In this document: positions 1 to 47,875 of the stretch, in pieces
Layout of the letters: each line of letters opens with the position of its first letter
How positions within the stretch are numbered: position 1 is the first letter of the stretch
Notes under the pieces: model-generated
Database searches by the model: none
Seen by the model: the letters and a program-made list of their open reading frames with translations, nothing else
Told to the model about the DNA's origin: nothing
Made by a program: the position numbers and the translations under genes
DNA from: an uncultured Eubacteriales bacterium
GTDB taxonomy: Bacteria > Acidobacteriota > Aminicenantia > Aminicenantales > Aminicenantaceae
Direction of reading: 5' to 3'
Length of the DNA: 64,000 nucleotides
Assembly: GCA_964584935.1 (NCBI GenBank)
Contig: CAZPBN010000008.1
Location: 38,962-102,961, forward strand

Positions 1-2
1 AG

Positions 3-407
3 GGATTTCACGTTGAAATACACACGAACTTGGATAAATTTCCAGCTGGCTCTCCTTATAAAACGGTTATATTTGCCATCGGAGCCAGTTTGAAAGGAAT
101 GGGAGCTTCGGGGCTTACGGTTGGAAAAGAAGAAAAACGCCTTAAGAACATCATCGACTACTGTCAAAATAACGATATCACCATTATTGCTGTCCATATC
201 GGAGGCATATCAAAAAGAGGAGCTCCGGGAAGTGATAATGAGCGGATGATCAATGCGGTTGCTCCTCAAGCAGATCAAATAATCATCACTACTTCAAGCA
301 ACAAAGACGGAAGATTTGACGAAATAGCCAAGAAAAATGACATTCCTTTAACAAAAATTGAATATGCATTGGAACTTGTTGATATTATAAAAGATATTTT
401 TGAATAA
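3..407 (+). CDS. DUF6305-like protein, 5'-partial (frame open to window edge)
   Basis: Frame is open from nt 3. The motifs GASLKGMGASG and IIAVHIGG..KRG match my recollection of DUF6305 proteins. Confidence 0.6.
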   Translation, partial: GFHVEIHTNLDKFPAGSPYKTVIFAIGASLKGMGASGLTVGKEEKRLKNIIDYCQNNDITIIAVHIGGISKRGAPGSDNERMINAVAPQADQIIITTSSNKDGRFDEIAKKNDIPLTKIEYALELVDIIKDIFE

Positions 408-625
408 ATCTTTCAATCCGAATTATCGTAAGACGCAAGATGCCATTGGAAAAATGAACACCAAGAGGACTATGTCATCATCTAACTTAAACAATGAGTG
501 CTCAGTTGCTATATGGTTGGATTGTTGGTTATATACGCCACTCTTTACAAAGAAAGCCATTTGATTGCGTTCCCCCTTACCCACTGTGTTTATTTTGTGC
601 CTGAGGCAGGGATTGTTTCTTCAGA

Positions 626-1257: not shown

Positions 1258-2832
1258 CTATATAACAGATAAACTCTGATAATAATCGGATAAAATTTCG
1301 TCATATCTTTGTCTAAAATCTCTCAGAGCATAGGGAAGATAATCCAGAATATCCTGGGCTGTGATCCCATCCTCTCCTTTCTTCACAGCAGCCATATCTC
1401 CGGAATATCCATGCATAAACACTCCGGTTTTCACTGCTTCTATCAATGGGAGGCCCAATCCATACATGGCTGCAATAGTCCCCGTAAGGACATCTCCGGA
1501 TCCCGCGGACGCCATCCCTGAATTCCCGCTCATATTGACAAAGACATGTTCATCAGGGCTTCCAATCAAAGTGTGAGCTCCTTTTAGAACAATGACAGCG
1601 TTCAATTTCTTGGCCCATTTCTGTACCAAATCGGTTTTATTATTAATTATTTCAGAAACTGGTTTATCAACCATCCTTGACATTTCTCCCAAATGAGGAG
1701 TGAGAATTGTCGGAGCGGATCTTTTTCTCAGTATTTCTATATCACTTGATAGAGCAGTGATTCCATCCCCATCCAGGAGGAGAGGATTCTTTAATCTTCG
1801 TGCTAAATATAAAACCAGTTCCTGGGTTTCTTTATTCAGAGACAACCCCGGTCCTAAGACAACCATATCAAGTTTCTCAGCTAAACGTAAAATCTCCTCC
1901 CTGTTCTCCAAAGCAACACTTCCTGTATCTGTTTCCTTCTGGGGAACAAAAACAATTTCACTTCCTTTGTTGGCAATAAAAGGGCTTATTGAAAAAGGAG
2001 CCGCTAACCGAGAATAGCCTCCTCCAGCTTTTAAAAAGGATAGAGCAGAAAAGTAAGGAGCTCCGTAGTAATTGGACGCTCCCGCAACAAAAAGAACATC
2101 TCCAAAGTTTCCTTTATGGGCATCCTTATCCCTTTCCGGAAGTTTTAAGGGAATATTTATCTCTATTTTCAGGGAATCTTTCTTATAAAGCTGGGGAGGA
2201 AACGATATGTGAGTGACATACAGTCGCCCACAAAGATCGTATCCTGGATAAAGGAGATTGCCTATTTTGGGAAGCCCAAATGACACTGTATAATCCGCTT
2301 TGACCCCAGTCCCCATTATCTGTCCGGTATTCCCGTTGATTCCGGACGGAATATCTATACTGAAAATTGTTTTATTCGCTTTATTAATTGTTTGGATCAC
2401 ATTTTTATGCAAGCCCGTCACATTTCTGGTCAATCCGGTTCCAAATATCCCATCCACAATCGCATCGGAACGGGATATTTCATTTTCCAATGATTTGATT
2501 GATTTTATCCGATTGACCTCTATAGGCAATTGAGTAATGATTTCATAGTTTTTCTTTGCAGCTCCCTTAAATTTTGCTGAATCAGCCATTAAAAATACAG
2601 TCGCCTTTCCTCCCATTGAATGAATTTTTCTTGCAACCATCAATCCATCCCCCCCATTATTTCCTGAACCACAGATGATAATGAATTTTTTCCCTTTAAT
2701 GCCAAATTCTTTAAGAATCACAAAATATACAGCATGCCCCGCATTCTCCATGAGCAATTCTTGGGAAATTCCATATTTCTCCATAGCGCTTTTATCTAAA
2801 TTCCTCATTTCTTCAACAGTTGATATTTTCAT
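1258..2832 (-). CDS. nnr: bifunctional NAD(P)H-hydrate epimerase/dehydratase (YjeF_N + carbohydrate kinase)
   Basis: LMENAG, GSGNNGGDG, DIPSG, HKGNFG, LTPHLGEM and GSGDVLTG motifs; GGAGG RBS. Confidence 0.95.
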   Translation of the reverse strand: MKISTVEEMRNLDKSAMEKYGISQELLMENAGHAVYFVILKEFGIKGKKFIIICGSGNNGGDGLMVARKIHSMGGKATVFLMADSAKFKGAAKKNYEIITQLPIEVNRIKSIKSLENEISRSDAIVDGIFGTGLTRNVTGLHKNVIQTINKANKTIFSIDIPSGINGNTGQIMGTGVKADYTVSFGLPKIGNLLYPGYDLCGRLYVTHISFPPQLYKKDSLKIEINIPLKLPERDKDAHKGNFGDVLFVAGASNYYGAPYFSALSFLKAGGGYSRLAAPFSISPFIANKGSEIVFVPQKETDTGSVALENREEILRLAEKLDMVVLGPGLSLNKETQELVLYLARRLKNPLLLDGDGITALSSDIEILRKRSAPTILTPHLGEMSRMVDKPVSEIINNKTDLVQKWAKKLNAVIVLKGAHTLIGSPDEHVFVNMSGNSGMASAGSGDVLTGTIAAMYGLGLPLIEAVKTGVFMHGYSGDMAAVKKGEDGITAQDILDYLPYALRDFRQRYDEILSDYYQSLSVI

Positions 2833-11800: not shown

Positions 11801-13258
11801 GTGAAAACTAAACAAATTTTGGTTTTTTTGCTTATCCCTATTTTGCTTTTGCTTTTTGTTTCCCACAAAATTCTTGCTGCTCAAGAGGATTGCACACAAT
11901 TAATAAATAATGCCGTTGCGGAATTCACGGGAGCTAATTTTGAAAGAGCCATACAATTGTTCAATGAGATAATAAACATGCCTGATTTCCAAACAAACTG
12001 CACCCCTTCAGAAAGAGAAAAATCTTATTTCTATTTATCCTACTGCCATTACCTCCTCTACGGATGCAGAAATCAAGCCACTCAAGAGGCAACCTGCAAT
12101 TTAAAAATCTATTTTCCCAATTTTGACCCTTCTAATCCAGATTACCAATGGGTGTCTCAGGACTGGATAAATTGCCTGAATAATGTGGAATGTTCCAATT
12201 GTGATCTCATTGCCCGTTTCTACAATTTAGGAAAAAACCAATATTCAAATAAAAATTACATATCAGCCGTTCAAAATTTAATCAACACCCGGGTGCTGAT
12301 TGAATCCGGACCCAGACCGCCGGATTGTCCCAAATATGACCAGTATAATAATTTTTCTTCTGAATATCTCTCTATATGTGAATCGAGGTTGATAGAAAAT
12401 TGGAACAAACACTTTGAATCGAACAATTATAATCAATGCTATGAAATGGAAAAAAATCTGTTTAACATTGAAGGACATGAAAACTATCTCCAAAATTTCA
12501 ACAGCCACATCGCTGAAAAAAAACAGTCCCTAGTGGAACAAGTCAACAATTCCTTACAAGACATCAAAGAAAAACTGGATACATTGTTGAGCATTGAACG
12601 ATTTGAAACAGTCAATTTTGATGAGTTACAGAATGATTGGGATATCATCAAAAACATCAATAAAGAATGGCTCCAAAGTGAGAACATATCACTCTCAATG
12701 GAAATGATTCCAGCTCAGGAATTGCTGGATAGCTTTAATACATTTTGCCGTTTTGCAACCACCCAATATGACCTTGAAAAAGAAAGAAATGTCATGACTT
12801 TAATGGAAAACTATAAAAATTTCATAATCAACAATTTTCCAAATTCTCAAGAACAGGTTCAATCCCAATATCAAAAATATATTAATGATCCTTCTACTGT
12901 TTTTAGAAAAACCAATATTGGAGTTTTCCCCCCTACCCGCAACACGGATTTCTTACTGCCTATATCTGATTGCATGAGAAACTACAACATCAAAGGAAGC
13001 ATAACCTGCGGAATCATAGTTGGAAGAGAGGGAAGAGTGGATAAATCCACCATCATTGAGAACAACCTGGATAGAAAAGAATCCTATTGCGTCAAGGATT
13101 TTGAAAAAAGTTTATTACAATACTTAGAACGTATAAGATTTAAGCCTGCATACAAAGTAAGGTATCTTCCTGCATGCACCAAACCAACCGGACATATTTC
13201 TTCGGCCAATACCATTAATGTCAGATACTATATAGAAAGACAATTTACTCTTAAATAG
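11801..13258 (+). CDS. secreted Cys-rich protein with TPR-like N-terminus and TonB C-terminal-like domain
   Basis: AGGAGG RBS and GTG start; signal peptide; 16 Cys. The C-terminus IKGSITCGIIVGREGRVDKSTII...RFKPA...INVRYYIERQFTLK resembles TonB_C. Confidence 0.65.
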   Translation: MKTKQILVFLLIPILLLLFVSHKILAAQEDCTQLINNAVAEFTGANFERAIQLFNEIINMPDFQTNCTPSEREKSYFYLSYCHYLLYGCRNQATQEATCNLKIYFPNFDPSNPDYQWVSQDWINCLNNVECSNCDLIARFYNLGKNQYSNKNYISAVQNLINTRVLIESGPRPPDCPKYDQYNNFSSEYLSICESRLIENWNKHFESNNYNQCYEMEKNLFNIEGHENYLQNFNSHIAEKKQSLVEQVNNSLQDIKEKLDTLLSIERFETVNFDELQNDWDIIKNINKEWLQSENISLSMEMIPAQELLDSFNTFCRFATTQYDLEKERNVMTLMENYKNFIINNFPNSQEQVQSQYQKYINDPSTVFRKTNIGVFPPTRNTDFLLPISDCMRNYNIKGSITCGIIVGREGRVDKSTIIENNLDRKESYCVKDFEKSLLQYLERIRFKPAYKVRYLPACTKPTGHISSANTINVRYYIERQFTLK

Positions 13259-13376
13259 TTGAAAATAGTTTAGAAGCAACAATAATTCAACGACTCGTAT
13301 TCTCTCACCTCCTATCTTCATTCACTCATTCAGTTTCTGAATAACACTCCAACTCCGGACTATAATAAACAGATGC

Positions 13377-14462
13377 TTATCCAGATAGTTCAGGTTCCTG
13401 TTGACGCAAGGATTCTTCATGGATCAGTTGATAAATGCGAAAAATGAAATCTTCACTGAGATTCTTTGATTTGCCGGTCTGAGTCCTGCTTCTTATAATT
13501 TCATTCCAGCGATCAGGCTGGTATTTGGAAACACCCGCCCTTTTTTTGTAAGAACCTATTTGACGCGATAGATTCATCCGTTCCGATAATAATTCAATCA
13601 ATTGATTATCAACATCATCCATTTCGCTTCGGTATTCTCTGAGTCTTTTAAAAAAATCTGTGTTATCACTATACGGCTTTTTAATTTTTAAATTGTCCAC
13701 AAGCTTTTTATAATCATCAGGAACAATCTGCTGTTTTGAATCACTCCAGGCTTCATCAGGATTGGTATGGACTTCAATCATCAGTCCATCAAATAACAAA
13801 TCCATCGCTTTCTGAGAAATTGTCTGAAGCCACTCCCTGTTTCCACAGATGTGACTGGCATCACAGAGGAGAGGAACATCAATCAAAGTTCTTTTCAATT
13901 CAATGGGAATTCGCCAGCAGGGTTCATTCCGAAAAACTGTTTTCATATGGGAATAAAAACCCCTATGAATGGCAATGAGTCGTTCAATTCCTGAATTGTG
14001 AAAACGATCAAATGCTCCCAGCCACAATTGAATATCAGGGCTTATGGGATTTTTAATCATAATGGGCTTGTCGATTCCTTTCAAACAATCCACAAGTGTT
14101 TGGACAGAAAATGGATTGGTTGTCGTCCGTGCTCCAATCCATAAAATATCGATATCATACTTCAAACTTTGTTCAACATGGTCGGGTTTAGCGACTTCAA
14201 CGCAAACAGGGATATTCGCCTCTTTTCCAGCATTTTTAAGCCATGGCAGTGCCTGAATACCCATTCCTTGGAAAGAGCTGGGCCTGGTTCTTGGTTTCCA
14301 TATGCCTCCACGAAGAACATTCACTTCATATTTTGACAATTTGAATGCTGTTTGCATTATTTGCTCCTCCGATTCCACACTGCACGGCCCTGCAATCAGA
14401 AATGTCTTATATTGAGGTGACTTTATTTTGAGAATATCATGAATGCTCTTATAACTGTTCAT
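13377..14462 (-). CDS. bifunctional DAHP synthase (type I-beta) / chorismate mutase type II
   Basis: IAGPCSVES, RGGIWKPRTRP, WIGART, IHRGF, DASH and MIEVH motifs. C-terminal CM domain YRSEMDDVDNQLIELLSERM...IGSYKK...HEES. Confidence 0.92.
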   Translation of the reverse strand: MNSYKSIHDILKIKSPQYKTFLIAGPCSVESEEQIMQTAFKLSKYEVNVLRGGIWKPRTRPSSFQGMGIQALPWLKNAGKEANIPVCVEVAKPDHVEQSLKYDIDILWIGARTTTNPFSVQTLVDCLKGIDKPIMIKNPISPDIQLWLGAFDRFHNSGIERLIAIHRGFYSHMKTVFRNEPCWRIPIELKRTLIDVPLLCDASHICGNREWLQTISQKAMDLLFDGLMIEVHTNPDEAWSDSKQQIVPDDYKKLVDNLKIKKPYSDNTDFFKRLREYRSEMDDVDNQLIELLSERMNLSRQIGSYKKRAGVSKYQPDRWNEIIRSRTQTGKSKNLSEDFIFRIYQLIHEESLRQQEPELSG

Positions 14463-14557
14463 AAAAATAAACCTTATTATTTAAATTGAATTCATTATAT
14501 CATTTTTTTTAATCTCAATTTGAATAAAATCCAATTATACCCTAAATTCCTGTCCTT

Positions 14558-15631
14558 TTGACTCTATTTGATTCTATAGTTGTTGGCTCAATGAAATTTT
14601 GTTATATTATTGAGGAAAGAGAAAGTGTTTTAAATTTGTCAAAAGAGTCAGTGGATATGATTTCTAATGGATTTCCCAAAACCAAGGGATTGAAAAAGAG
14701 ATTTTCTATAGGGCTAACTTTACGATTTATGAGCGAAGAAGAATATAAATCAATCATTGACGAATTTAACGAATACATTTACGAAATATACTTTTCTCCC
14801 CCTTTTGGAGACAAATTCCACTCAAGAAAAGAAGTAGCCAAAGGATTGAAACCTTCTCCTGAAACTGAAGAAAAAGTGTTCCGAATACTCACCTATGCTG
14901 TTGATAAAGGAATTCAATTGACCCTCGCATTGAACACAAAAGTGATCCTCCTGGCGAATGTCTTAAAAGCTGCTGAACGAGTCCTGGAAAGAGTGAACAT
15001 TGGTTCCTTCACCACCCTCATGAATTTTGCTGGCCCCTTGAAATGTTTGTACCCGGACATTCCTATAAAATGTTCATACAATGAAGGAGTCAAGAATCCA
15101 AGTGAATTAGAACAAATCTGTTCTCATAACCTGTTTTCATCCATTGTCCTCGGAAATTCGACCTTAAGAAATAATGATTTATTCAGACAGGCAGTCACAA
15201 AAGGCTTGGAAGTGGAACTGCTTTTAAACAATGGCTGTACTTTTGCCTGCAACAATTTCTGTTTCCCTTCTTCCCATTGTGAAGAAGACTTCATGAAAAG
15301 CTTAAAATCCCACCCTATCAATTTTTTGTATTCCAGACAGTCCATCATCCCCAGGGAATTTTTTACCTATTACATTGAAAACAAAAACATACGCCACTTC
15401 AAAATATCAAATAGACCGTGCACTTATAACTATTTATCCACCTGCTTGAAATCGTATATTCAAAACATCGATTTTGAACTGATCAAAAGAGACATAAAAT
15501 ATTATCGACTCTGGGCGCGCCTGGTTCATTTCAATCGATTCCTTGGTTTTTTGGATTTTGATAAAATCTGTGAATACAAGGATAATTTATGGGAACATCA
15601 CAACAGTCATAACCTTAAAGCTATTCGATAA
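14558..15631 (+). CDS. divergent peptidase-U32-family Fe-S protein (putative hydroxylase); true start may be 14591 or 14657
   Basis: Pattern EIYFS...GIQLTLALN...YPDIPIKCS; Cys cluster ELLLNNGCTFACNNFCFPSSHC; IIPRE..Y; FKISNR (U32 KIxGR-like). Confidence 0.7.
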   Translation: MTLFDSIVVGSMKFCYIIEERESVLNLSKESVDMISNGFPKTKGLKKRFSIGLTLRFMSEEEYKSIIDEFNEYIYEIYFSPPFGDKFHSRKEVAKGLKPSPETEEKVFRILTYAVDKGIQLTLALNTKVILLANVLKAAERVLERVNIGSFTTLMNFAGPLKCLYPDIPIKCSYNEGVKNPSELEQICSHNLFSSIVLGNSTLRNNDLFRQAVTKGLEVELLLNNGCTFACNNFCFPSSHCEEDFMKSLKSHPINFLYSRQSIIPREFFTYYIENKNIRHFKISNRPCTYNYLSTCLKSYIQNIDFELIKRDIKYYRLWARLVHFNRFLGFLDFDKICEYKDNLWEHHNSHNLKAIR

Positions 15632-15696
15632 AGTTATGATTTGTATATCCGAATTATAAACCTTATCAACCATGAAGGTTTAAATCGATAATTATT

Positions 15697-15969
15697 CTAA
15701 ATTTTTCCAAAAAGCATTAAAATTCCAATAAATATAAATAGAATCCCTCCACTGTATTTAATAATCTCTGGACTTATATATTTGCTGAGCAAAGAACCAA
15801 TAATAACAGATATGGCCGTCACAAGGATATAGGCAGTTACAGAGCCAAACCATACGCTTAAGGGTTTCCCTGTTTTTGCGGTCATCCCAATGGCAACGAA
15901 CTGGGTTTTATCAGCCAATTCAGCCAAAAATATAGCTCCAAACGTTGTGACAAATACCTTGAAATCCAT
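15697..15969 (-). CDS. TMEM165/GDT1 (UPF0016) family putative Mn/Ca transporter, single-domain form
   Basis: FLAELADKTQ signature, three TM helices, AGGAG RBS before 15969. Confidence 0.9.
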   Translation of the reverse strand: MDFKVFVTTFGAIFLAELADKTQFVAIGMTAKTGKPLSVWFGSVTAYILVTAISVIIGSLLSKYISPEIIKYSGGILFIFIGILMLFGKI

Positions 15970-16007
15970 TATCTTTCTCCTTTTCCAGAAAACCAATTTT
16001 TCATTAT

Positions 16008-16637
16008 CTAAAATCTGATAAAAGCACTCAAATAAGCGTTAAAGCTTCTTATATTGTCAGGTTCAGCGAAAAGAAATACGTAACGAATATCCGTACTGAT
16101 TCCAAAACCGGGATTGATAAAATACTGAATTCCGGCTCCTGCTTGAACTAAGGGATCTATAGTGTTTTCGGGCACCAGGATATCTATTTTATATCCGTAT
16201 TCCGAAATATAAGTTCTATCTTTAGCCAATAATTTATCGAATCCGCCTCCTAAATAAAGATAAGGTCTAAATTTTTCTTTTGACAAACTGTAATGCAGAT
16301 TCAGAGTCAATGAAACATGATTCGAAGTATCAATATCAACAGTGTCCTGATCAGAAGGATCTTCCAGGGTTATCTCTGATTTAAAAAAATAACTGGCATC
16401 CAAGTTAATTCCGAATCTTTCGGAAAAAAAATAAGCAAAATTTGTTCCCAAGCAGGCAGAAATATGGGTAGGAGTGACAGGAAAATCATTCTTTCCTAAA
16501 ACATAATCATCCTCTGATCCATATTCCAAAACACAGCTCATTCCTCCGTAAATGGATAATTGTATATTTTTTCCTTTCCCAAAACTGACTCCAGAACAAA
16601 TAAAGACAATCCAAAAAAAGAGTAATGCTTTCTTCAC
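16008..16637 (-). CDS. outer-membrane beta-barrel protein (OmpW/OMP_b-brl-like)
   Basis: Signal peptide, RPYLYLGGG, alternating beta strands and a C-terminal Phe. Confidence 0.8.
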   Translation of the reverse strand: MKKALLFFWIVFICSGVSFGKGKNIQLSIYGGMSCVLEYGSEDDYVLGKNDFPVTPTHISACLGTNFAYFFSERFGINLDASYFFKSEITLEDPSDQDTVDIDTSNHVSLTLNLHYSLSKEKFRPYLYLGGGFDKLLAKDRTYISEYGYKIDILVPENTIDPLVQAGAGIQYFINPGFGISTDIRYVFLFAEPDNIRSFNAYLSAFIRF

Positions 16638-21579: not shown

Positions 21580-21656
<77 letters not shown>

Positions 21657-32966: not shown

Positions 32967-35321
32967 TCAAATTTTACTGAAACAGGAATGGCATCTCCAT
33001 TTTTGTATCATGCTCACCGCTTCATCGGATCGCCTGAAACACGGAATCCCCTTTTTCTCAAAGGCTTTTACGAGAGGATTGTATATCTCTCCGGAATCAA
33101 TATTCACAACAAAAGGAGTTTCATTATTTTGAAATATCTCGGATAACAAATGGACAATTCCACCTTTTTTATTCAGGTCTTCTTTATGATACGAAGCAGG
33201 TGCGAGAGTCTGCATCGCCGGCGTCATGGGAACTGGAGAAACCACGGCGCAATCAACATTTTTATCTTTCAGGATAGCTTCCACGCATCGAGCAAATGTG
33301 AGATCATCCGCAACCGGAGTTACATCAAGCGGATTCCGCACATCCTGAAGCCGATCTATCCCCAGAGGGCTCAATATCTCAGCGATTTTTTTTATTGTGG
33401 AAGAAGAGAATTGAGCCAGTTCCAATCCCTTGCCTCCCTTCAGATTATCCGCCATGATGACACATTCAAAACCCGCGTTGCTGATCAATCCTATTTTATT
33501 TCCTTTGATTTGCTTTTCATCCAGAAATATAGAGAATTTTATGTAATTTTCAAACTCAAAAATATCATTCGCGACGATGACACCAGCTTCTTGAAGAATG
33601 GAGCGGCAAACATCATATTCTCCAGCGACAGAAGCTGTATGGCTTGAAGTGGCTGCTTTTCCTTCAAGACTTCTTCCTGATTTGTAGACAACAATCCGTT
33701 TCCCCTGTTTTTTTAATATTTCTTTGGCTGCTTTGGCAAACAAATAACCATCAGAGGAAAGAAAGCCTTCGATATAGACAGCAAAAACTCTTGCTTCTGA
33801 ATCTTCTTTGAAGTAATTCAAATAATCGGAAAGCGAAAGGTCTATTTGATTTCCTATGGAAATTCCGTATAAAGGAACAATCCCTGAAAGATTGCTCATC
33901 CTGGATATCATAAAGGCTCCGCTCTGGCTTATATAGACCATATTTGCCTTCTTTGTTTCATGCCGGGGAATTTCATAAAGCTTATAGGCAGGCACAAAAG
34001 TGGTATCAAATTTTCCTGGCCTGGAGTAAATACCAAGGCAGTTTCCTCCATTGACAACCGGAGTGATTTTATTTTCCTTTCTTCCCTTGTTTATCAGTTT
34101 TTTTATCCTGCTTTCCAGATGATGAGTTCCTTCTTTTTCCCCAATACCTCCGGCAATGATTATGACCGAACGGGCCTTTTCATAGGTAATGATATCTTTC
34201 ATAACTTCATAACTCTGTTCTGCTGCCAGAGTGAGAACAAACATATCCACCGTTTCCGGTAAATCCTTTACCGAAGAAACACACCGGCAACCTTCTATCT
34301 CATTGACACCTGGTTTGATCACCCAAACTTTTTCTTCCGAAAATCCCTCATTCAATATATTATTGAGAATGATATGCCCTAGATTCATCTTTTCTGAAAC
34401 ACCGATGATCGCAATGCTTTTGGGTTTCAACAGAAATTGGATATCCTTAAAAGGCCGGGAAACAACCTCTTGATGTTTTTTTGAAAAACGGCACATCCCG
34501 TCAAGAGGAACCAGGCTCTGGTTGCTTATCACAAACGGATTGACCTCTGCCTCTTCAATCACATAATCACTTTGTTCCAAATATACCGAATAATATAAAG
34601 CCAATTGGATAAAACGGGAATATGTATTGATCAACTCTTCTTTCTTGAGCAGGGGCTCTTTACCCCGGAATTTCTTAACCAATTTTTCATAAACAGCAAG
34701 GGGACTTAAAATACTTTCAATGGAGTCCTTTTTAAGCAAATGGGGAGAACCAATAGAGACCGCTTTTCCTTCTTTAATTCTCTCCTTCAGGAATTCGACT
34801 TCTATACCCCCAATTCCAAAAGATAGAACAGGTCCAAACTCTCGTGTGGTCCGGATCCCCAAAAGAAGCTCGGTTCCAAATCCTGTTTTCTTATAATCGA
34901 TGGATTCGCAGATTAAAATACCTTTTAAGCTCTGTTGGACTTCCTTCGAAGTTATCACTTTTTCCGGATGGTTTTTTTTAAACTTTTTTATCCAGTTTAC
35001 ATAATTAGGAGGAATTTCTTCAAGCATTCTCCGGTAGGTTTTGTTCACCTTGTCAACATTGTTTTCAACAAATCGAACTCCCCCTACATCTGTTTTATGG
35101 ATTATTTCAGGAGAAACAATCTTTAAAACAAGCTCATTTGTTTTCAATAAAGATAACTTCTCTGATTCGATCTCCTGTCCTTTTTCCAAAAAAATATAAT
35201 TGGGGGAACGGACACCAATTTCCTTGAGCATATCATAGACTTCGTTTTCTAATAAAAAATTTCGATCGGCGTTTTCTGCATTCTTAAATATTTTATTGAT
35301 TTTCTTAAAATTGATATCCAT
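32967..35321 (-). CDS. ADP-forming acyl-CoA synthetase (acetate-CoA ligase family), ATP-grasp domain first
   Basis: LKIVSPEIIHKTDVGGV, EVNP, PKSIAIIG, GGNCLG, SQSG, SHTAS phospho-His, NAG and NPLD motifs. Confidence 0.9.
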   Translation of the reverse strand: MDINFKKINKIFKNAENADRNFLLENEVYDMLKEIGVRSPNYIFLEKGQEIESEKLSLLKTNELVLKIVSPEIIHKTDVGGVRFVENNVDKVNKTYRRMLEEIPPNYVNWIKKFKKNHPEKVITSKEVQQSLKGILICESIDYKKTGFGTELLLGIRTTREFGPVLSFGIGGIEVEFLKERIKEGKAVSIGSPHLLKKDSIESILSPLAVYEKLVKKFRGKEPLLKKEELINTYSRFIQLALYYSVYLEQSDYVIEEAEVNPFVISNQSLVPLDGMCRFSKKHQEVVSRPFKDIQFLLKPKSIAIIGVSEKMNLGHIILNNILNEGFSEEKVWVIKPGVNEIEGCRCVSSVKDLPETVDMFVLTLAAEQSYEVMKDIITYEKARSVIIIAGGIGEKEGTHHLESRIKKLINKGRKENKITPVVNGGNCLGIYSRPGKFDTTFVPAYKLYEIPRHETKKANMVYISQSGAFMISRMSNLSGIVPLYGISIGNQIDLSLSDYLNYFKEDSEARVFAVYIEGFLSSDGYLFAKAAKEILKKQGKRIVVYKSGRSLEGKAATSSHTASVAGEYDVCRSILQEAGVIVANDIFEFENYIKFSIFLDEKQIKGNKIGLISNAGFECVIMADNLKGGKGLELAQFSSSTIKKIAEILSPLGIDRLQDVRNPLDVTPVADDLTFARCVEAILKDKNVDCAVVSPVPMTPAMQTLAPASYHKEDLNKKGGIVHLLSEIFQNNETPFVVNIDSGEIYNPLVKAFEKKGIPCFRRSDEAVSMIQKWRCHSCFSKI

Positions 35322-35389
35322 TCTTCACACTTCCACTCTATTCATCTTACTTATCACGTTTTGAAATTCGCAGCACAACGAATACAATT

Positions 35390-35436
35390 AACGCAATAAA
35401 CGCAAGCAACGGCTACAAACGCAATAAACGCTATCG
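35390..35436 (+). repeat. 9-bp tandem repeat (AACGCAATA-like, about 5 units)
   Basis: AACGCAATA AACGCAAGC AACGGCTAC A AACGCAATA AACGCTATC. Confidence 0.65.
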
Positions 35437-35481
35437 ATTCAAGTGCGTCCTGCGATTTATTAATTTCCAATTTCCATTTTC

Positions 35482-36066
35482 TTATATCTCATTATTTCCA
35501 GCAGCTTCTTTCCCCAAATGAAAAGCTTTTCTGTTCAACTCAACAAGCTTTTCCCCCCGGTCTTTGAATAACACTTCTATAAACTCGAGCAAGCTTTCTT
35601 CTTTAATCGGCAAATCACTGGATGCTGCTCCCAATACCACCATGTTCTGGGCTTTTGTTGTGCCTGCCTCTTTAGCCAGTTTAACAGAATCAACATCAAT
35701 TACTTTTTTTGATTTCCTGATTTGAGACATAACCTCATTCACATCCGGATAATCAGGTATGTTTTCATAAGGATTCCGGCTGGTGACAATAATGCCTTCC
35801 ATGGAGAGATAATCAAAATAGCGAAGCACCTCCAAAGGCTCAACACTTATGATCATATCAGCAGAACCTTTGGGAATAAGATCGCTATAGATTTTTTCCT
35901 TGGAAATGCGAAGATGAGATTGCACAGCTCCCCCTCGTTGAGCCATACCATGAACTTCTGCCTGCTTAAAATAAAAGCCGTCTTTCAGTGCGGCATTGTC
36001 AATAACAAATGCTATGGAAAGAATCCCCTGTCCCCCCACACCGGCTAAGATAATATCTTGTTTCAT
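35482..36066 (-). CDS. iorB: indolepyruvate:ferredoxin oxidoreductase beta subunit
   Basis: GVGGQG, EVHGMAQRGGAVQSH and NMVVLGA motifs; AGGAG RBS within the end of iorA. Confidence 0.93.
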   Translation of the reverse strand: MKQDIILAGVGGQGILSIAFVIDNAALKDGFYFKQAEVHGMAQRGGAVQSHLRISKEKIYSDLIPKGSADMIISVEPLEVLRYFDYLSMEGIIVTSRNPYENIPDYPDVNEVMSQIRKSKKVIDVDSVKLAKEAGTTKAQNMVVLGAASSDLPIKEESLLEFIEVLFKDRGEKLVELNRKAFHLGKEAAGNNEI

Positions 36067-36068
36067 CC

Positions 36069-37667
36069 TTATTGACTCCTTCTTTTTTTCTTGAGTTCCT
36101 GAATACACTTCCGGGCAGCAATAATGACAGAAAGTCCTTCATACTCGATTTCTTCCTTCATAACCTGAATGTTCTTTTCCAAATTTTTCGGAAGCGGCAC
36201 AATGACTCGCACGTGTTCATCTTCCACTCCCAATCCTTTGACAATTCTTACCAAGTTTCCCCCTGTGGAAAATGAAGGCTGTAATCCTGTCATGGCAACG
36301 CAGGCATTATCCACAATAACAAGAACCATATTCGTACTTGCACTCGCCGCATCTAAAAGAGGAGTCATGCCTGAGTGAGCAAAAGTAGAATCCCCAATAA
36401 CTCCCATAGAAGGATATATTCCTGCTTCGGCGCCTCCTTTTGCCATACTCACACTTGCTCCCATACAAACACAGGTGTCAACGGCTTTATAAGGAGGAAG
36501 CGCTCCCAGAGTATAACAGCCGATATCACTGAAAACAGTAGCATTGGGATAATTTTCCAGAGCTTTATTCAAAGCATCAAACGTATCCGCATGAGGACAT
36601 CCTTTGCATAATTGAGGAGGACGACCGGGGAGCTTGAAATCCCCAGGCTCCATATGCGGTTTTGGTTTCATTTCAAGTGCATGACGGACTGAGTCTGAAG
36701 ACAATTCTCCGGTTACGGGAAGAGTTCCATTCAATTTGCCCCTTATATTTTTACCATTCAATCCAAGAATCCCATTAAGATGGCTCTCAATATACGGATA
36801 TCCTTCTTCCACTACCAGAATGGAATCCACATGATCCACCAGCTCTTTGATAAGATCATCAGGAAGAGGATATGTGGATATCTTTAAAAAAGAAGGAGGA
36901 GTTTCCAATTCAAGAAAGTTTTCCATCACATAGTTATAAGCAATTCCAGAAGCAATCACTCCCAGGGATTTATTTGATTGGTTTATATCCAAAGAGTTGA
37001 ATTTCGAATCATTCGAAACCTTTTTTAATTTTGTCTGAACATCGTTAAGTATTTTAAACCTCCTTCGGGCATTCACAGGAAGGAGAGTCCAATCCCTTCC
37101 CTCTCCATATTTGATTGTGTTTTCATTTTTTAAAGAGGCAGTTTTGACAAGGGACCGGCTATGGGAAAGTCTAGTAACCATCCGAATCATAACCGGAACA
37201 CCTATTTCCTCAGATATATCAAATGCCAATCGGGTCATGTCATAGGCTTCCTGATGGTTTGCCGGTTCAAAGCAGAAAATTTTTGCAAACTGGGCGTAAT
37301 AACGGCTGTCCTGTTCGTTTTGAGAGCTATGCATACCTGGATCATCAGCGACAGCTAAAACGAGGCCTCCGTTTGTTCCGGTTATTGCTGAATTCATAAA
37401 AGGATCAGCTGCCACATTCAATCCAACGTGCTTCATAGAAACCATGGCTCTCTTCCCGGCAAAAGATACTCCTAAAGCTTCCTCATACGCTACTTTTTCA
37501 TTGACACACCATAAAGCTTTCAAACTCTTCCCGCTCTTTGATATTTTTAGAAGATATTCCATGATTTCAGATGCAGGTGTTCCTGGATAAGAATAACCCA
37601 CTGAAAGACCGGCATGAAAACCTCCCAGGGCAAGAGCTTCATCTCCCAATAAAATTACTTTTTTCAT
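36069..37667 (-). CDS. iorA: indolepyruvate:ferredoxin oxidoreductase alpha subunit (no C-terminal ferredoxin domain)
   Basis: YPGTPASEI, NEKVA, MKHVGLNVAADP, DDPGMHSSQNEQD, RPPQLCKGCPH, DIGCY and the GDST TPP motif. Confidence 0.95.
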   Translation of the reverse strand: MKKVILLGDEALALGGFHAGLSVGYSYPGTPASEIMEYLLKISKSGKSLKALWCVNEKVAYEEALGVSFAGKRAMVSMKHVGLNVAADPFMNSAITGTNGGLVLAVADDPGMHSSQNEQDSRYYAQFAKIFCFEPANHQEAYDMTRLAFDISEEIGVPVMIRMVTRLSHSRSLVKTASLKNENTIKYGEGRDWTLLPVNARRRFKILNDVQTKLKKVSNDSKFNSLDINQSNKSLGVIASGIAYNYVMENFLELETPPSFLKISTYPLPDDLIKELVDHVDSILVVEEGYPYIESHLNGILGLNGKNIRGKLNGTLPVTGELSSDSVRHALEMKPKPHMEPGDFKLPGRPPQLCKGCPHADTFDALNKALENYPNATVFSDIGCYTLGALPPYKAVDTCVCMGASVSMAKGGAEAGIYPSMGVIGDSTFAHSGMTPLLDAASASTNMVLVIVDNACVAMTGLQPSFSTGGNLVRIVKGLGVEDEHVRVIVPLPKNLEKNIQVMKEEIEYEGLSVIIAARKCIQELKKKRRSQ

Positions 37668-37894
37668 ATGAAATTCCTTCAAATGTTGTATTTATAATGA
37701 ATCGATAGAACCAAATAATAGAAATAAGAATACCTTCTATAAATTCAAGTGTCAAGATAAAGAAGTTCAATGAAGTTTCTCCAATTTTAATGGACTTTTT
37801 ATATTACAGAAAATTTATATGTTTTATAATTTCCATTTATTTATGGTACAATAAATATAATTATAAAGAATGTTTTCTTATTGAGGAGTATTAA

Positions 37895-38448: not shown

Positions 38449-39558
38449 ATGAAAAAGAAAAAAGTCGCCGTTGCCATGAGCGGGGGGATTGATTCCTCTT
38501 TTGCCGCTTATATTCTCAAAAAACAGGGTTTTGATGTTATGGGCTTAACCATGAACATTGTTAATCCATCTGGCAGTAACAAACACACCCGCAATCAAAA
38601 GAAGGAAAACGGTTTTTATAAAGATCCGGCCGAGGATGCCCATCAGGTTGCCAAGTTTCTTGATATCGATCATCACTCAGTTGATTTAAGGGAAATTTTC
38701 GAAAAAAAAATAGTGGCAAACTTCTGCAGAGAATATTCCAAAGGGTATACCCCGAATCCTTGTGTTCGCTGCAACCAACTCATAAAATTTGGTGTTCTTT
38801 TAAATAAATTAAAAGACTATAATGCGGATTATCTGGCAACCGGTCATCACAGTCTTATTGAATTCGATAAAAAAACAAACCGATACATTTTAAAAAAAGG
38901 GAAAGATAGAGAAAAAGACCAGTCATATTTTCTTTATACACTGACTCAAGAACAACTGTCCCGAATACTCATGCCTGTAGGAAATTTCAGGAAAAAAGAA
39001 ATAATAAAAATATCCCGTGAAATCGGACTTCCTGCATTCAAAAGTAAAGAAAGTCAGGAAATTTGTTTTATCCCTGATGATAATTATATAAAATTTCTCA
39101 AAGAAAGAGTCCCTGGTTCTTTTTCATCCGGAAAGATTGTTGACCTTGCACATAATGTGCTTGGTTATCATAAAGGGATCGCCCATTTCACCATTGGACA
39201 GAGAAAAGGGATGGGAATTTCGCATCCTCAACCTCTGTATGTTCTTCATATTTCAGCAAAAAACAACACAGTGACAGTGGGGCCGGATCAATGTTTGCAC
39301 AAAAAAGATTTATTAGCCTCTAATGTAAACTTCATATCTCAAGAAAAAATCGAAGCTCCTCAATTTGTCAAAGCAAAAATCCGGTACAATCAGAAGGAAT
39401 CAAAAGCATGGATATCACCTGCTGGAAAAGGTAAAATCAAAGTTAAATTTTCAACTCCCCAAAGAGCCATATCTCCCGGACAATCTGTGGTTTTTTATTG
39501 GAAAGACACTGTTGTCGGCGGAGGGATTATTGAAAAGGAAACAGAACTCTCCCTTTGA
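38449..39558 (+). CDS. mnmA: tRNA 2-thiouridylase MnmA
   Basis: SGGIDS PP-loop, TPNPCVRCN, ATGH, KDQSYFL, SQEICF, TIGQRKG and PGQ motifs. Confidence 0.96.
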   Translation: MKKKKVAVAMSGGIDSSFAAYILKKQGFDVMGLTMNIVNPSGSNKHTRNQKKENGFYKDPAEDAHQVAKFLDIDHHSVDLREIFEKKIVANFCREYSKGYTPNPCVRCNQLIKFGVLLNKLKDYNADYLATGHHSLIEFDKKTNRYILKKGKDREKDQSYFLYTLTQEQLSRILMPVGNFRKKEIIKISREIGLPAFKSKESQEICFIPDDNYIKFLKERVPGSFSSGKIVDLAHNVLGYHKGIAHFTIGQRKGMGISHPQPLYVLHISAKNNTVTVGPDQCLHKKDLLASNVNFISQEKIEAPQFVKAKIRYNQKESKAWISPAGKGKIKVKFSTPQRAISPGQSVVFYWKDTVVGGGIIEKETELSL

Positions 39559-46439: not shown

Positions 46440-47822
46440 TCAGATCTGTTCGAATCTTGCCGTGAAGTGCCTGAGGTGTTCCGGTTGATAGACTATTTTC
46501 AGTCCCTTTATCTTGCTTCGTTCTTTATAAAGCGCTTTCAGGGAATCAGCTATATAGTTCAAATGAGAAACCGTATAGACTCTTCTCGGTATCGCCAGGC
46601 GAACCAGTTCCAACTTGGGATATTCCACTTCCCCTGTTTGTTCATTTGTCTTTGAAAACATAACACCGCCAATCTCGACTGCACGAATTCCTGATTTTCT
46701 GAACAATTCCACGGTCAAAGTCCATCCAGGGAATTGATGACGCGGAATATGGGGAAGAAACTGATCAGCCAGTATATAGACGGCATGACCTCCAATAGGA
46801 TTAAAAACAGGTATTCCTGCCTCTTTTAAAAGATTTCCAAGATACTGCACTTGATTCACCCGGTATTCCAGATAATCTTCATCCAGTACTTCCTGAATCC
46901 CTATAGAAATGGCTTCAAGATCCCGTCCAGCAAGACCTCCATAGGTTAAAAATCCTTCGCCTATGATAAGAAGATTTTTAATTTTTTGTGCCAGAGAATC
47001 GTCATTCAAGGTAACAAATCCTCCAATGTTCACCAGGGCATCCTTTTTTGCGCTCATAGTCGCCCCATCGGCATAGGAGAACATTTCCCTTGAAATTTCC
47101 AACATGGATTTACTTGAAAAACCCTTTTCTCTTTTTTTAATAAAATAGGCATTCTCAGCAAAGCGACAGGCATCAAAGAAAAAGGGAATGCCATATTTCC
47201 GGCAAAGGCTGCTCGTATCTTTGATATTTTTGAGTGATACAGGCTGTCCTCCACCACTGTTATTGGTCAATGTCAACATAACAAGAGGTATTTTTTCTTT
47301 TTCGTTTTCCTTGAAAAAATTCTCCAGTTTTTCCAAATTCATGTTCCCTTTAAATCCAAAATCAGAGTCAGGATTATAGGCTTCATCAATCACTAAGTTT
47401 CTAGCTTCGGCTTCTCTGACCTCAATGTTTGCCCGGGTAGTGTCAAAGTGAATATTGTTCACCACAACATCCCCTTTTTTCAGTACCGATTGAAAAAGTA
47501 TCCTTTCCGCTGCTCTTCCCTGATGAGTTGGTACGACATGATCAAATCCGAATACACTCTTTACAGATTTTTCAAAATTGAAGAAGCTTTTTGATCCGGC
47601 ATAAGACTCATCCCCGGTCATCATCCCTGCCCATTGATGATCACTCATTGCAGAAGTCCCGCTGTCCGTGAGAAGATCGATATAGACCTTCTCAGAAGGA
47701 ATATCAAACACATTGAATCCGCATTCTTTAAGGAGTTTCTCTCTTTCCTTTTGTGAAATCTTCTTTATCGGTTCCACAACCTTTATTTTGAAAGGTTCAA
47801 CGGGAAGCTTAAAATCAGACAT
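46440..47822 (-). CDS. tnaA: tryptophanase (beta-eliminating lyase; tyrosine phenol-lyase is the alternative)
   Basis: IDLLTDSGT, GDESYAGS, THQGR.AE, FDTTR, GGQPVS, MSAKKD (PLP Lys), TYGGL and RLAIPRRVYT motifs. Confidence 0.88.
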   Translation of the reverse strand: MSDFKLPVEPFKIKVVEPIKKISQKEREKLLKECGFNVFDIPSEKVYIDLLTDSGTSAMSDHQWAGMMTGDESYAGSKSFFNFEKSVKSVFGFDHVVPTHQGRAAERILFQSVLKKGDVVVNNIHFDTTRANIEVREAEARNLVIDEAYNPDSDFGFKGNMNLEKLENFFKENEKEKIPLVMLTLTNNSGGGQPVSLKNIKDTSSLCRKYGIPFFFDACRFAENAYFIKKREKGFSSKSMLEISREMFSYADGATMSAKKDALVNIGGFVTLNDDSLAQKIKNLLIIGEGFLTYGGLAGRDLEAISIGIQEVLDEDYLEYRVNQVQYLGNLLKEAGIPVFNPIGGHAVYILADQFLPHIPRHQFPGWTLTVELFRKSGIRAVEIGGVMFSKTNEQTGEVEYPKLELVRLAIPRRVYTVSHLNYIADSLKALYKERSKIKGLKIVYQPEHLRHFTARFEQI

Positions 47823-47875
47823 AATCACCTCCGGATGTTCAAAAGCACTAGTATTCCATTATTTCAAAAGTCTGT

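Follow-up and report, generated by a model that had tools for sequence, protein, structure and literature searches.

We analyzed a 64,000-nucleotide stretch of DNA (hereafter the window; positions 38,962 to 102,961 of contig CAZPBN010000008.1, assembly GCA_964584935.1) from an uncultured bacterium of the family Aminicenantaceae in the phylum Acidobacteriota, in which two divergently oriented genes lie side by side. Gene A encodes a 3-deoxy-D-arabino-heptulosonate 7-phosphate (DAHP) synthase (DAHPS) fused to a chorismate mutase (CM), and gene B, the main subject of this work, encodes a member of an unnamed protein family (hereafter family B) that probably descends from the same ancestor as the U32 proteins. 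Numbered from the first letter of the window, the features of the locus are as follows.

13377..14462, minus strand: gene A, a bifunctional DAHP synthase with a C-terminal type II chorismate mutase, 361 amino acids (aa), by the Pfam families DAHP_synth_1 and CM_2.
14463..14656, no strand: AT-rich divergent spacer between genes A and B, read from the sequence, 194 bp long with the gene B start at 14657 or 95 bp long with a TTG start at 14558.
14657..15631, plus strand: gene B, a stand-alone member of an unnamed, distant U32-like family of predicted Fe-S proteins with a triose-phosphate isomerase (TIM) barrel, 324 aa from its likely ATG start.
15236..15280, plus strand: four-Cys motif C-x3-C-x3-C-x5-C after barrel strand 7, a predicted [4Fe-4S] site (translation, conservation and alignment to U32).
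15398..15415, plus strand: FKISNR on barrel strand 8, which corresponds to the 'KIEGR' strand of U32 (translation, conservation and alignment to U32).

The longest open reading frame (ORF) of gene B runs from 14558 to 15631 on the plus strand and would encode 357 aa from a TTG codon. Since the homologs are shorter (about 305–315 aa, spanning about 85% of the ORF) and residues 1–26 are disordered in the structural model, with a predicted local distance difference test score (pLDDT) below 50, the ATG at 14657 is probably the true start, and the divergent spacer would therefore measure 194 bp and not 95 bp. The ORF is intact and keeps all invariant residues of the family. Among 41 aligned homologs, the motif keeps three Cys without exception and the remaining one, at residue 8 or 9 of the 15 that the motif spans, in at least 90% of the sequences; the K, S and R of FKISNR never vary (41/41). 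Because of this conservation, the two motifs, which an earlier note made from the bare sequence had already picked out in what it called a divergent gene, are not chance features. Most family members space the first Cys residues as C-x3-C-x2-C, whereas the window protein has C-x3-C-x3-C. In the predicted structure, the Cys at 227–241 follow strand 7 (E218–224).

Four independent signals agree on a relationship to U32 proteins. Firstly, the AlphaFold2 model of gene B is a TIM barrel (pLDDT 88, predicted TM-score 0.85), and its best structural match is Mk0906 of Methanopyrus kandleri (PDB 5d88), the sole solved U32 barrel found; the two share 9% identity, and gene B extends further by about 55 helical residues at its C-terminus (residues 294–357 of the model are not aligned). 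Secondly, hhalign comparison of 126 family B sequences with 10 U32 proteins (Escherichia coli UbiU, UbiV, TrhP and RlhA, and six more from genomes in which family B occurs as well) gave a probability of 84% and an E-value of 7.3e-6 over 208 co-linear columns. In this alignment, FKISNR falls on the U32 KIEGR column block, so that both families have a basic K-I-x-x-R strand 8, and Cys 2–4 fall on the U32 motif Cys. The controls scored low: a DAHPS barrel alignment gave 1.1% and reversed U32 gave 0.1%. Thirdly, a hidden Markov model (HMM) built from the 10 U32 sequences and run over 8256 ORFs of the genome matched gene B alone (E 1.1e-3). Finally, PF01136, the Pfam U32 family, was assigned to 17/30 named neighbour clusters of gene B in the ESM Atlas, and to 5/30 in the unfiltered search. 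A canonical U32 gene (PF01136) was found in 0/41 genomes of this order, that is, the window's own genome (G000) and 40 relatives. Separately, a PDB sequence search with gene B returned chance or weak barrel matches (E of at least 0.5 with the single sequence; indole-3-glycerol phosphate synthase at E 0.014 as a profile), which we set aside.

Several observations weigh against a U32 assignment. Gene B reached no PF01136 match, and no family at all, in Pfam at E up to 0.1, and matched neither a family nor a U32 model in NCBIfam; a precomputed Pfam domain was present in 0/47 word-indexed homologs, and when the 41 aligned members were searched at E up to 1, PF01136 was not among the listed families (25 of 40). 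The structural margin of the U32 match over generic barrels is just about 1.5 Z. U32 itself aligned with the DAHPS barrel at 54.6% over 84 columns, so barrels cross-match and the 84% is supportive, not proof; a shallower hhalign pair (41-row against 6-row alignment), superseded by the deeper comparison, gave 4.6%. The N-terminal ELL(A/S)PAG strand and the signature Glu of U32 are not conserved: the family B consensus opens with KKFNIGLTL, and the position ahead of LLLNNGC is not a conserved Glu. The U32 signature is E-x-F-x2-G-[SA]-x-C. The four-Cys cluster of family B is conserved and aligns as described, but its spacing differs, with a span of 15 residues against about 30 in the U32 proteins that we fetched. 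Furthermore, 3/41 members gave weak Radical_SAM matches (best E 0.028) and 4/41 weak Fer4_12 matches, and the C-x3-C-x2-C of most members is also the spacing of radical S-adenosylmethionine (SAM) enzymes. Radical-SAM enzymes carry their Cys motif after strand 1 of a partial barrel. Membership of gene B among them was rejected on its motif position after strand 7, its fourth Cys and its C-x3-C-x3-C spacing.

Taken together, gene B very probably belongs to a remote and as yet unnamed branch of the U32 superfamily, as judged from profiles and a predicted fold. What the data support is remote homology and not family membership: profile similarity is co-linear over the barrel and the TIM barrel is closest to a solved U32, and the PF01136 gathering score is not reached. 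The 12 U32 subfamilies were defined from Pfam members (PMC5727448, cited here and below from an excerpt), and gene B lies outside them because it has no PF01136 match. The earlier note's assignment of gene B to the U32 family thus held for fold, profile similarity and Cys-cluster site, and failed at the boundary of the Pfam model. Its remark on the missing N-terminus was borne out: the fetched canonical U32 proteins begin with ELLSPAG, ELLAPAG or ELLCPAG and gene B does not. Neither DUF3656 nor the U32 C-terminal domain is present.

Family B comprises at least 465 cluster representatives at E ≤1e-3 and 200 at E ≤1e-10, mostly from metagenome-assembled genomes of gut and rumen Clostridia. Gene neighborhoods were analyzed at 54 loci (22 in species genomes, 32 in metagenomes; 9 duplicates included), with flanks of up to 6 kb, many contigs being shorter. 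A SPASM radical-SAM gene lies in the flank of 43/54 loci (35/45 non-duplicate) and at most 300 bp away in 23; nine of the 11 loci without one are short contigs or contig ends. The best NCBIfam matches of these partner maturases are DynA, anaerobic sulfatase maturase and cyclophane-forming maturases, all but one below the cut-off, and the maturase of one genome, G043, scores 376.9 bits on TIGR04261 (GrrM/OscB), over the cut-off of 310. Beside the partner maturases, small ORFs on the same strand have C-termini rich in Tyr/His/Trp/Phe and Asp/Glu. One type, with a conserved leader, a core with HFEHYDWTY and a CC(C) end, was found at 13 distinct Clostridia loci, in 2–3 tandem copies at some of them. 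The usual gene order with this type is DUF92, uppS, gene B homolog, 197-aa ORF, peptide(s), DUF5685 and maturase, and representative positions are given here.

L014:7537-8032, L015:4902-5078, L021:7564-8053 and 10 more loci: CC(C)-type small ORFs, between the 197-aa ORF and DUF5685.

By gene content, most family B homolog loci have the anatomy of a cluster for ribosomally synthesized and post-translationally modified peptides (RiPPs), with a putative precursor and a maturase beside the tailoring gene. They resemble SPASM RiPP systems such as DynA/DarE and the cyclophane formers of the GrrM/OscB type, in that a maturase accompanies aromatic-rich precursor-like ORFs; PqqE/PqqB is another system acting on aromatic residues. 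The set of CC(C)-type ORFs, SPASM maturase and U32-like gene looks like an undescribed RiPP class. Our literature search found no described SPASM RiPP system with a U32-like protein and no paper tying U32 proteins to RiPPs or radical-SAM clusters, and for DUF5685 it returned only an unrelated mention. The neighbors of family B, peptide maturases, thus differ from the RNA or quinone genes of known U32 systems.

About one sixth of the listed family B representatives (P0052–P0058, P0064, P0066 and others) are fused forms of 500–600 aa, in which another U32-like domain, distinct from the first, makes up the C-terminal half (hhalign against U32 94.6%, E 6.7e-8). Family models found nothing in these fused forms (Pfam 0/28, NCBIfam 0/13), and the idea that the C-terminal half equals the 197-aa neighboring ORF was dropped, as BLASTP gave no match. 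The two-domain forms recall, by analogy, the UbiU/UbiV pair and the tandem motifs of RlhA (RlhA1/RlhA2), a pairing of U32 domains described in the excerpt of PMC5727448. Two short metagenome contigs carry the closest homologs of gene B (42% and 39% identity): on L041, a sulfotransferase (2-442, plus strand) overlaps the start of the homolog, and on L042 a DXD glycosyltransferase (1575-2249, plus strand) adjoins it. With the DltB/DltD-like genes of G043, the clade of gene B may sit among envelope-modification genes.

Gene A, in contrast to its setting, is an ordinary protein. Residues 19–253 match DAHP_synth_1 (E 9.7e-38, 130 bits, cut-off 25.5) and residues 277–356 match CM_2 (E 3.7e-23, 82 bits, cut-off 27), which bears out the earlier reading as a DAHP synthase–chorismate mutase fusion; the score on NCBIfam NF009239 is 194.9, under the cut-off of 279. 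More than 8000 homologs exist, both domains occur in 120/120 of those listed, and the nearest non-self homologs are 65–68% identical. Sources name them 'bifunctional 3-deoxy-7-phosphoheptulonate synthase/chorismate mutase type II', a form with C-terminal chorismate mutase named in Bacteroidota, Verrucomicrobiota and others, and gene A agrees with the named or listed proteins in both domains and their order, at 54–68% identity. What is odd is its occurrence in a lineage otherwise with unfused DAHPS, together with its redundancy. The fused gene was found in 0/40 relatives and in 4/200 genomes of the phylum, all of one genus (43–44% identity), and family B in 0/40 relatives and 0/400 genomes of the phylum. 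The four phylum matches (L096–L099, genus g67) lie inside ORFs of 455–702 aa, which suggests a further fusion.

The earlier note had asked whether a second, housekeeping DAHPS exists, and it does, with a separate chorismate mutase elsewhere in the genome.

Contig C4 of G000, locus L101:7910-15850, minus strand: housekeeping DAHPS at the end of a complete trpE-G-D-C-F-B-A operon, followed by aroQ.

This second DAHPS has a ferredoxin-like regulatory domain and is the last gene of trpEGDCFBA. The second chorismate mutase stands alone and adjoins a weak prephenate-dehydrogenase-like gene; prephenate dehydratase (PF00800) was not found in the genome, which is 95% complete. Gene A, which is foreign to the lineage, therefore duplicates both a DAHPS and a chorismate mutase that the genome already has, and is redundant with them.

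Searches for a vehicle or a boundary of acquisition gave little. Gene B had no plasmid or phage match by tblastn and no relative on viral contigs, and no long direct or inverted repeats flank the pair at 12800–16200. GC content, GC content at third codon positions and codon usage of genes A and B lie inside the spread of the genome. A two-gene insertion was sought by synteny, and the regions upstream of the S9 peptidase ortholog in five relatives share no other window gene. A 485-aa neighbor of the pair occurs in 1/25 relatives, and about 8 kb around the pair is not syntenic with the relatives, so that an insertion boundary cannot be drawn.

Based on these results, we favor, at a probability of roughly 55%, that gene B is a horizontally acquired, stand-alone U32-like protein that would modify aromatic rings without O2, with a possible connection to gene A. 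By analogy with UbiU/UbiV (ubiquinone), TrhP (5-hydroxyuridine in tRNA) and RlhA (5-hydroxycytidine 2501 of 23S rRNA), which share with family B the TIM barrel and the Cys motif after strand 7, the reaction of family B would be an O2-independent modification of an aromatic ring, most likely hydroxylation, and like those systems gene B is found in an apparent anaerobe. The compact four-Cys site after strand 7 would most likely hold a [4Fe-4S] cluster, as in UbiU/UbiV. The invariant Arg, Lys, Asn and Ser at the C-terminal strand ends would make up the active site, where they could bind both carboxylates of prephenate, the presumed oxygen donor. The cluster would then relay electrons from the aromatic ring, and decarboxylation of prephenate would deliver hydroxide, as proposed for U32 proteins in the portion of PMC10990095 drawn on here. 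The phenol of tyrosine resembles the octaprenylphenol substrate of UbiU/UbiV, by analogy only. In this genome, gene B has lost, or never had, the usual neighbors of its family.

In one competing account, which we consider possible at rather less than even odds, the adjacency to gene A is accidental, gene A is an isoenzyme of the Phe/Tyr branch, and gene B either acts in trans for a RiPP-like cluster or is an orphan remnant that does not act at all. No SPASM maturase or other radical-SAM gene was found near gene B in the window, and no aromatic-rich small ORF at 13240–15720, so that gene B, unlike the genes of SPASM RiPP systems, has neither maturase nor precursor beside it. Lacking the usual family partners here, it could be inactive or differ in role, which also counts against the reading that we favor. 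A RiPP-like cluster does exist elsewhere in the same genome, on contig C9 (locus L102).

L102:13347-14426, minus strand: DynA/anSME-like SPASM enzyme.
L102:13066-13296, minus strand: 76-aa ORF directly after the maturase, with a twin-arginine-like leader and a Trp/Tyr/Asp-rich tail, found by local scan.
L102:3334-10149, minus strand: further part of the C9 cluster.

The cluster also contains two more radical-SAM genes and exporters of the MacB/HlyD/TolC and major facilitator superfamily types. A genome-wide filter for Tyr-rich small ORFs returned none; it was too strict and missed the 76-aa ORF. Action in trans would agree with the ties of family B to SPASM maturases and aromatic-rich small ORFs and with the intact ORF of gene B. 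Against it, an ortholog of the C9 maturase is found in 1/40 relatives (G021, 54% identity), which has no gene B, and therefore gene B is not an obligate part of the C9 system; this also speaks against a function of gene B, as we read it, within that cluster. Moreover, the C9 maturases scored 119 and 112 bits on the HMM of partner maturases, whereas most true neighbors reached E-values of 1e-60 to 1e-176.

Another account, proposed in the earlier note, takes the two genes as a cassette in which an acquired DAHPS–CM raises prephenate for an O2-independent hydroxylation by gene B. Its premise is sound: prephenate is the oxygen donor for UbiU/UbiV and is required for TrhP and RlhA, according to the excerpt of PMC10990095. 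Hydroxylation that depends on prephenate and does without O2 is known only for these U32 proteins. The genes are divergent neighbors separated by at most 194 bp, both are absent from the 40 relatives and rare or absent in the phylum, and gene A duplicates activities present elsewhere in the genome. Within a starred clade of seven rows in the maximum-likelihood tree, the window and G043 are the only members with at least 5 kb of context (contexts of P0002, P0055 and P0006 are not included), and both carry an extra DAHPS paralog within about 2 kb. In G043, the sole carrier of family B among 131 searched genomes of its phylum, a third, divergent DAHPS paralog lies about 2 kb from the family B gene; of the three PF00793 matches in that genome, a 271-bit DAHPS and a KdsA-sized gene rank ahead of this one. 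Upstream of the G043 operon, which contains two radical-SAM genes, an ATP-binding cassette exporter, a DltB-like MBOAT protein and a DltD-like protein, lies a candidate precursor. An extra paralog within a few genes of gene B would be expected by chance in well under 1% of genomes, by a rough estimate. The DAHPS of the window and of G043 differ in architecture (CM-fused against FXD-fused, 24% identity), and a genuine link would imply that the two were recruited separately.

Nevertheless, a DAHPS is nearby in 1/54 homologous loci (1/22 genome and 0/32 metagenome loci) and a chorismate mutase fusion in none, so that within the flanks examined, homologs show no enrichment near DAHPS/CM genes of the kind that the earlier note had looked for. 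The window was ascertained by the same feature, and the independent support is a single locus, found post hoc, whose DAHPS is convergent to the operon and outside it. The lack of synteny around the pair makes joint absence weak evidence of joint transfer, and the composition of genes A and B is ordinary. DAHPS–CM fusions are very common housekeeping enzymes, and branch-specific isoenzymes are normal: as the other DAHPS sits in the trp operon, it would be unremarkable for the Phe/Tyr branch to have an isoenzyme of its own. The cassette thus drew support from redundancy, shared absence and the case of G043 and lost it in the neighborhoods of homologs. We hold it doubtful, and the functional link between genes A and B itself is unlikely. 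The arrangement here and in G043, with an extra DAHPS copy beside specialized-metabolism genes, resembles that of pathway-dedicated DAHPS of the BagF/FevY type (NF041229). The proposed role differs, in that such copies supply carbon skeletons and the present one would supply an oxygen-donor co-substrate; the scores on the NF041229 model are 116 and 176 bits against a cut-off of 700. Further pathway-dedicated DAHPS copies occur in secondary-metabolite clusters.

A still bolder combination, which we regard as improbable, is that family B is a so far unrecognized thirteenth U32 branch that hydroxylates Tyr, Trp, His or Phe of ribosomal peptides with prephenate and without O2, alongside SPASM radical-SAM maturases, and that in its clade, of which this genome and G043 are members through sporadic transfer, the gene is accompanied by or picks up an extra DAHPS of its own (CM-fused in this genome) to provide the oxygen donor. 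If that were true, no earlier genomic module would be known that supplies the co-substrate for prephenate-based hydroxylation, and no earlier U32-type enzyme that acts on peptides.

Least probable is that gene B is no U32-type hydroxylase and instead a TIM-barrel Fe-S (or Zn) protein with another chemistry, such as a radical-SAM-like or electron-transfer partner, a peptidase or a peptide-binding scaffold: the missing PF01136 match, the common spacing and weak matches to radical-SAM families, and the first description of U32 proteins as peptidases (excerpt of PMC5727448) would fit, while the position of the motif, the four agreeing U32 signals and a fourth Cys that would occupy the Fe site that radical-SAM enzymes keep free for SAM stand against it.

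For the rest of the locus and the window, the A/B spacer has promoter-like (sigma-70) matches in both orientations, with 17 such matches counted in 13200–15800 and 9.6 ± 2.8 in shuffled sequence, and contains no Rfam family and no RiPP-like small ORF. Rfam at gathering thresholds found a single tRNA in the window (21583–21656). Across 54 scanned ORFs of at least 90 aa, no other aro, phe, tyr or trp biosynthesis gene was found in the 64 kb, in line with the earlier note, and the aromatic-related genes besides gene A are of catabolic types only. They include a pair of 2-oxoacid (indolepyruvate-type):ferredoxin oxidoreductase genes adjoining an ADP-forming acyl-CoA synthetase-like gene (32967–37679, minus strand) and a beta-eliminating lyase of the tryptophanase/tyrosine phenol-lyase family (46440–47825, minus strand). 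The oxidoreductase pair and the lyase are aromatic amino-acid catabolism genes of an anaerobe, and the oxidoreductase genes would fit an anaerobic lifestyle.

The unannotated U32-like family inside peptide-maturation clusters is a more solid and more novel result than the cassette. According to the excerpts of PMC10990095 and PMC5727448 used here, U32 enzymes are the only ones known to use an organic molecule, prephenate, as oxygen donor for hydroxylation, and most subfamilies have no known substrate. If the pairing with DAHPS/CM in the window and in G043 is real, genome organization would independently indicate that this branch, too, consumes prephenate; otherwise, the window would simply contain an orphan of an interesting new family beside an ordinary enzyme. 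Family B itself is invisible to Pfam and NCBIfam, and its genomic context offers a testable class of substrates, the aromatic side chains of peptides, which could make it a route to catechol- or quinone-type peptide products formed anaerobically.

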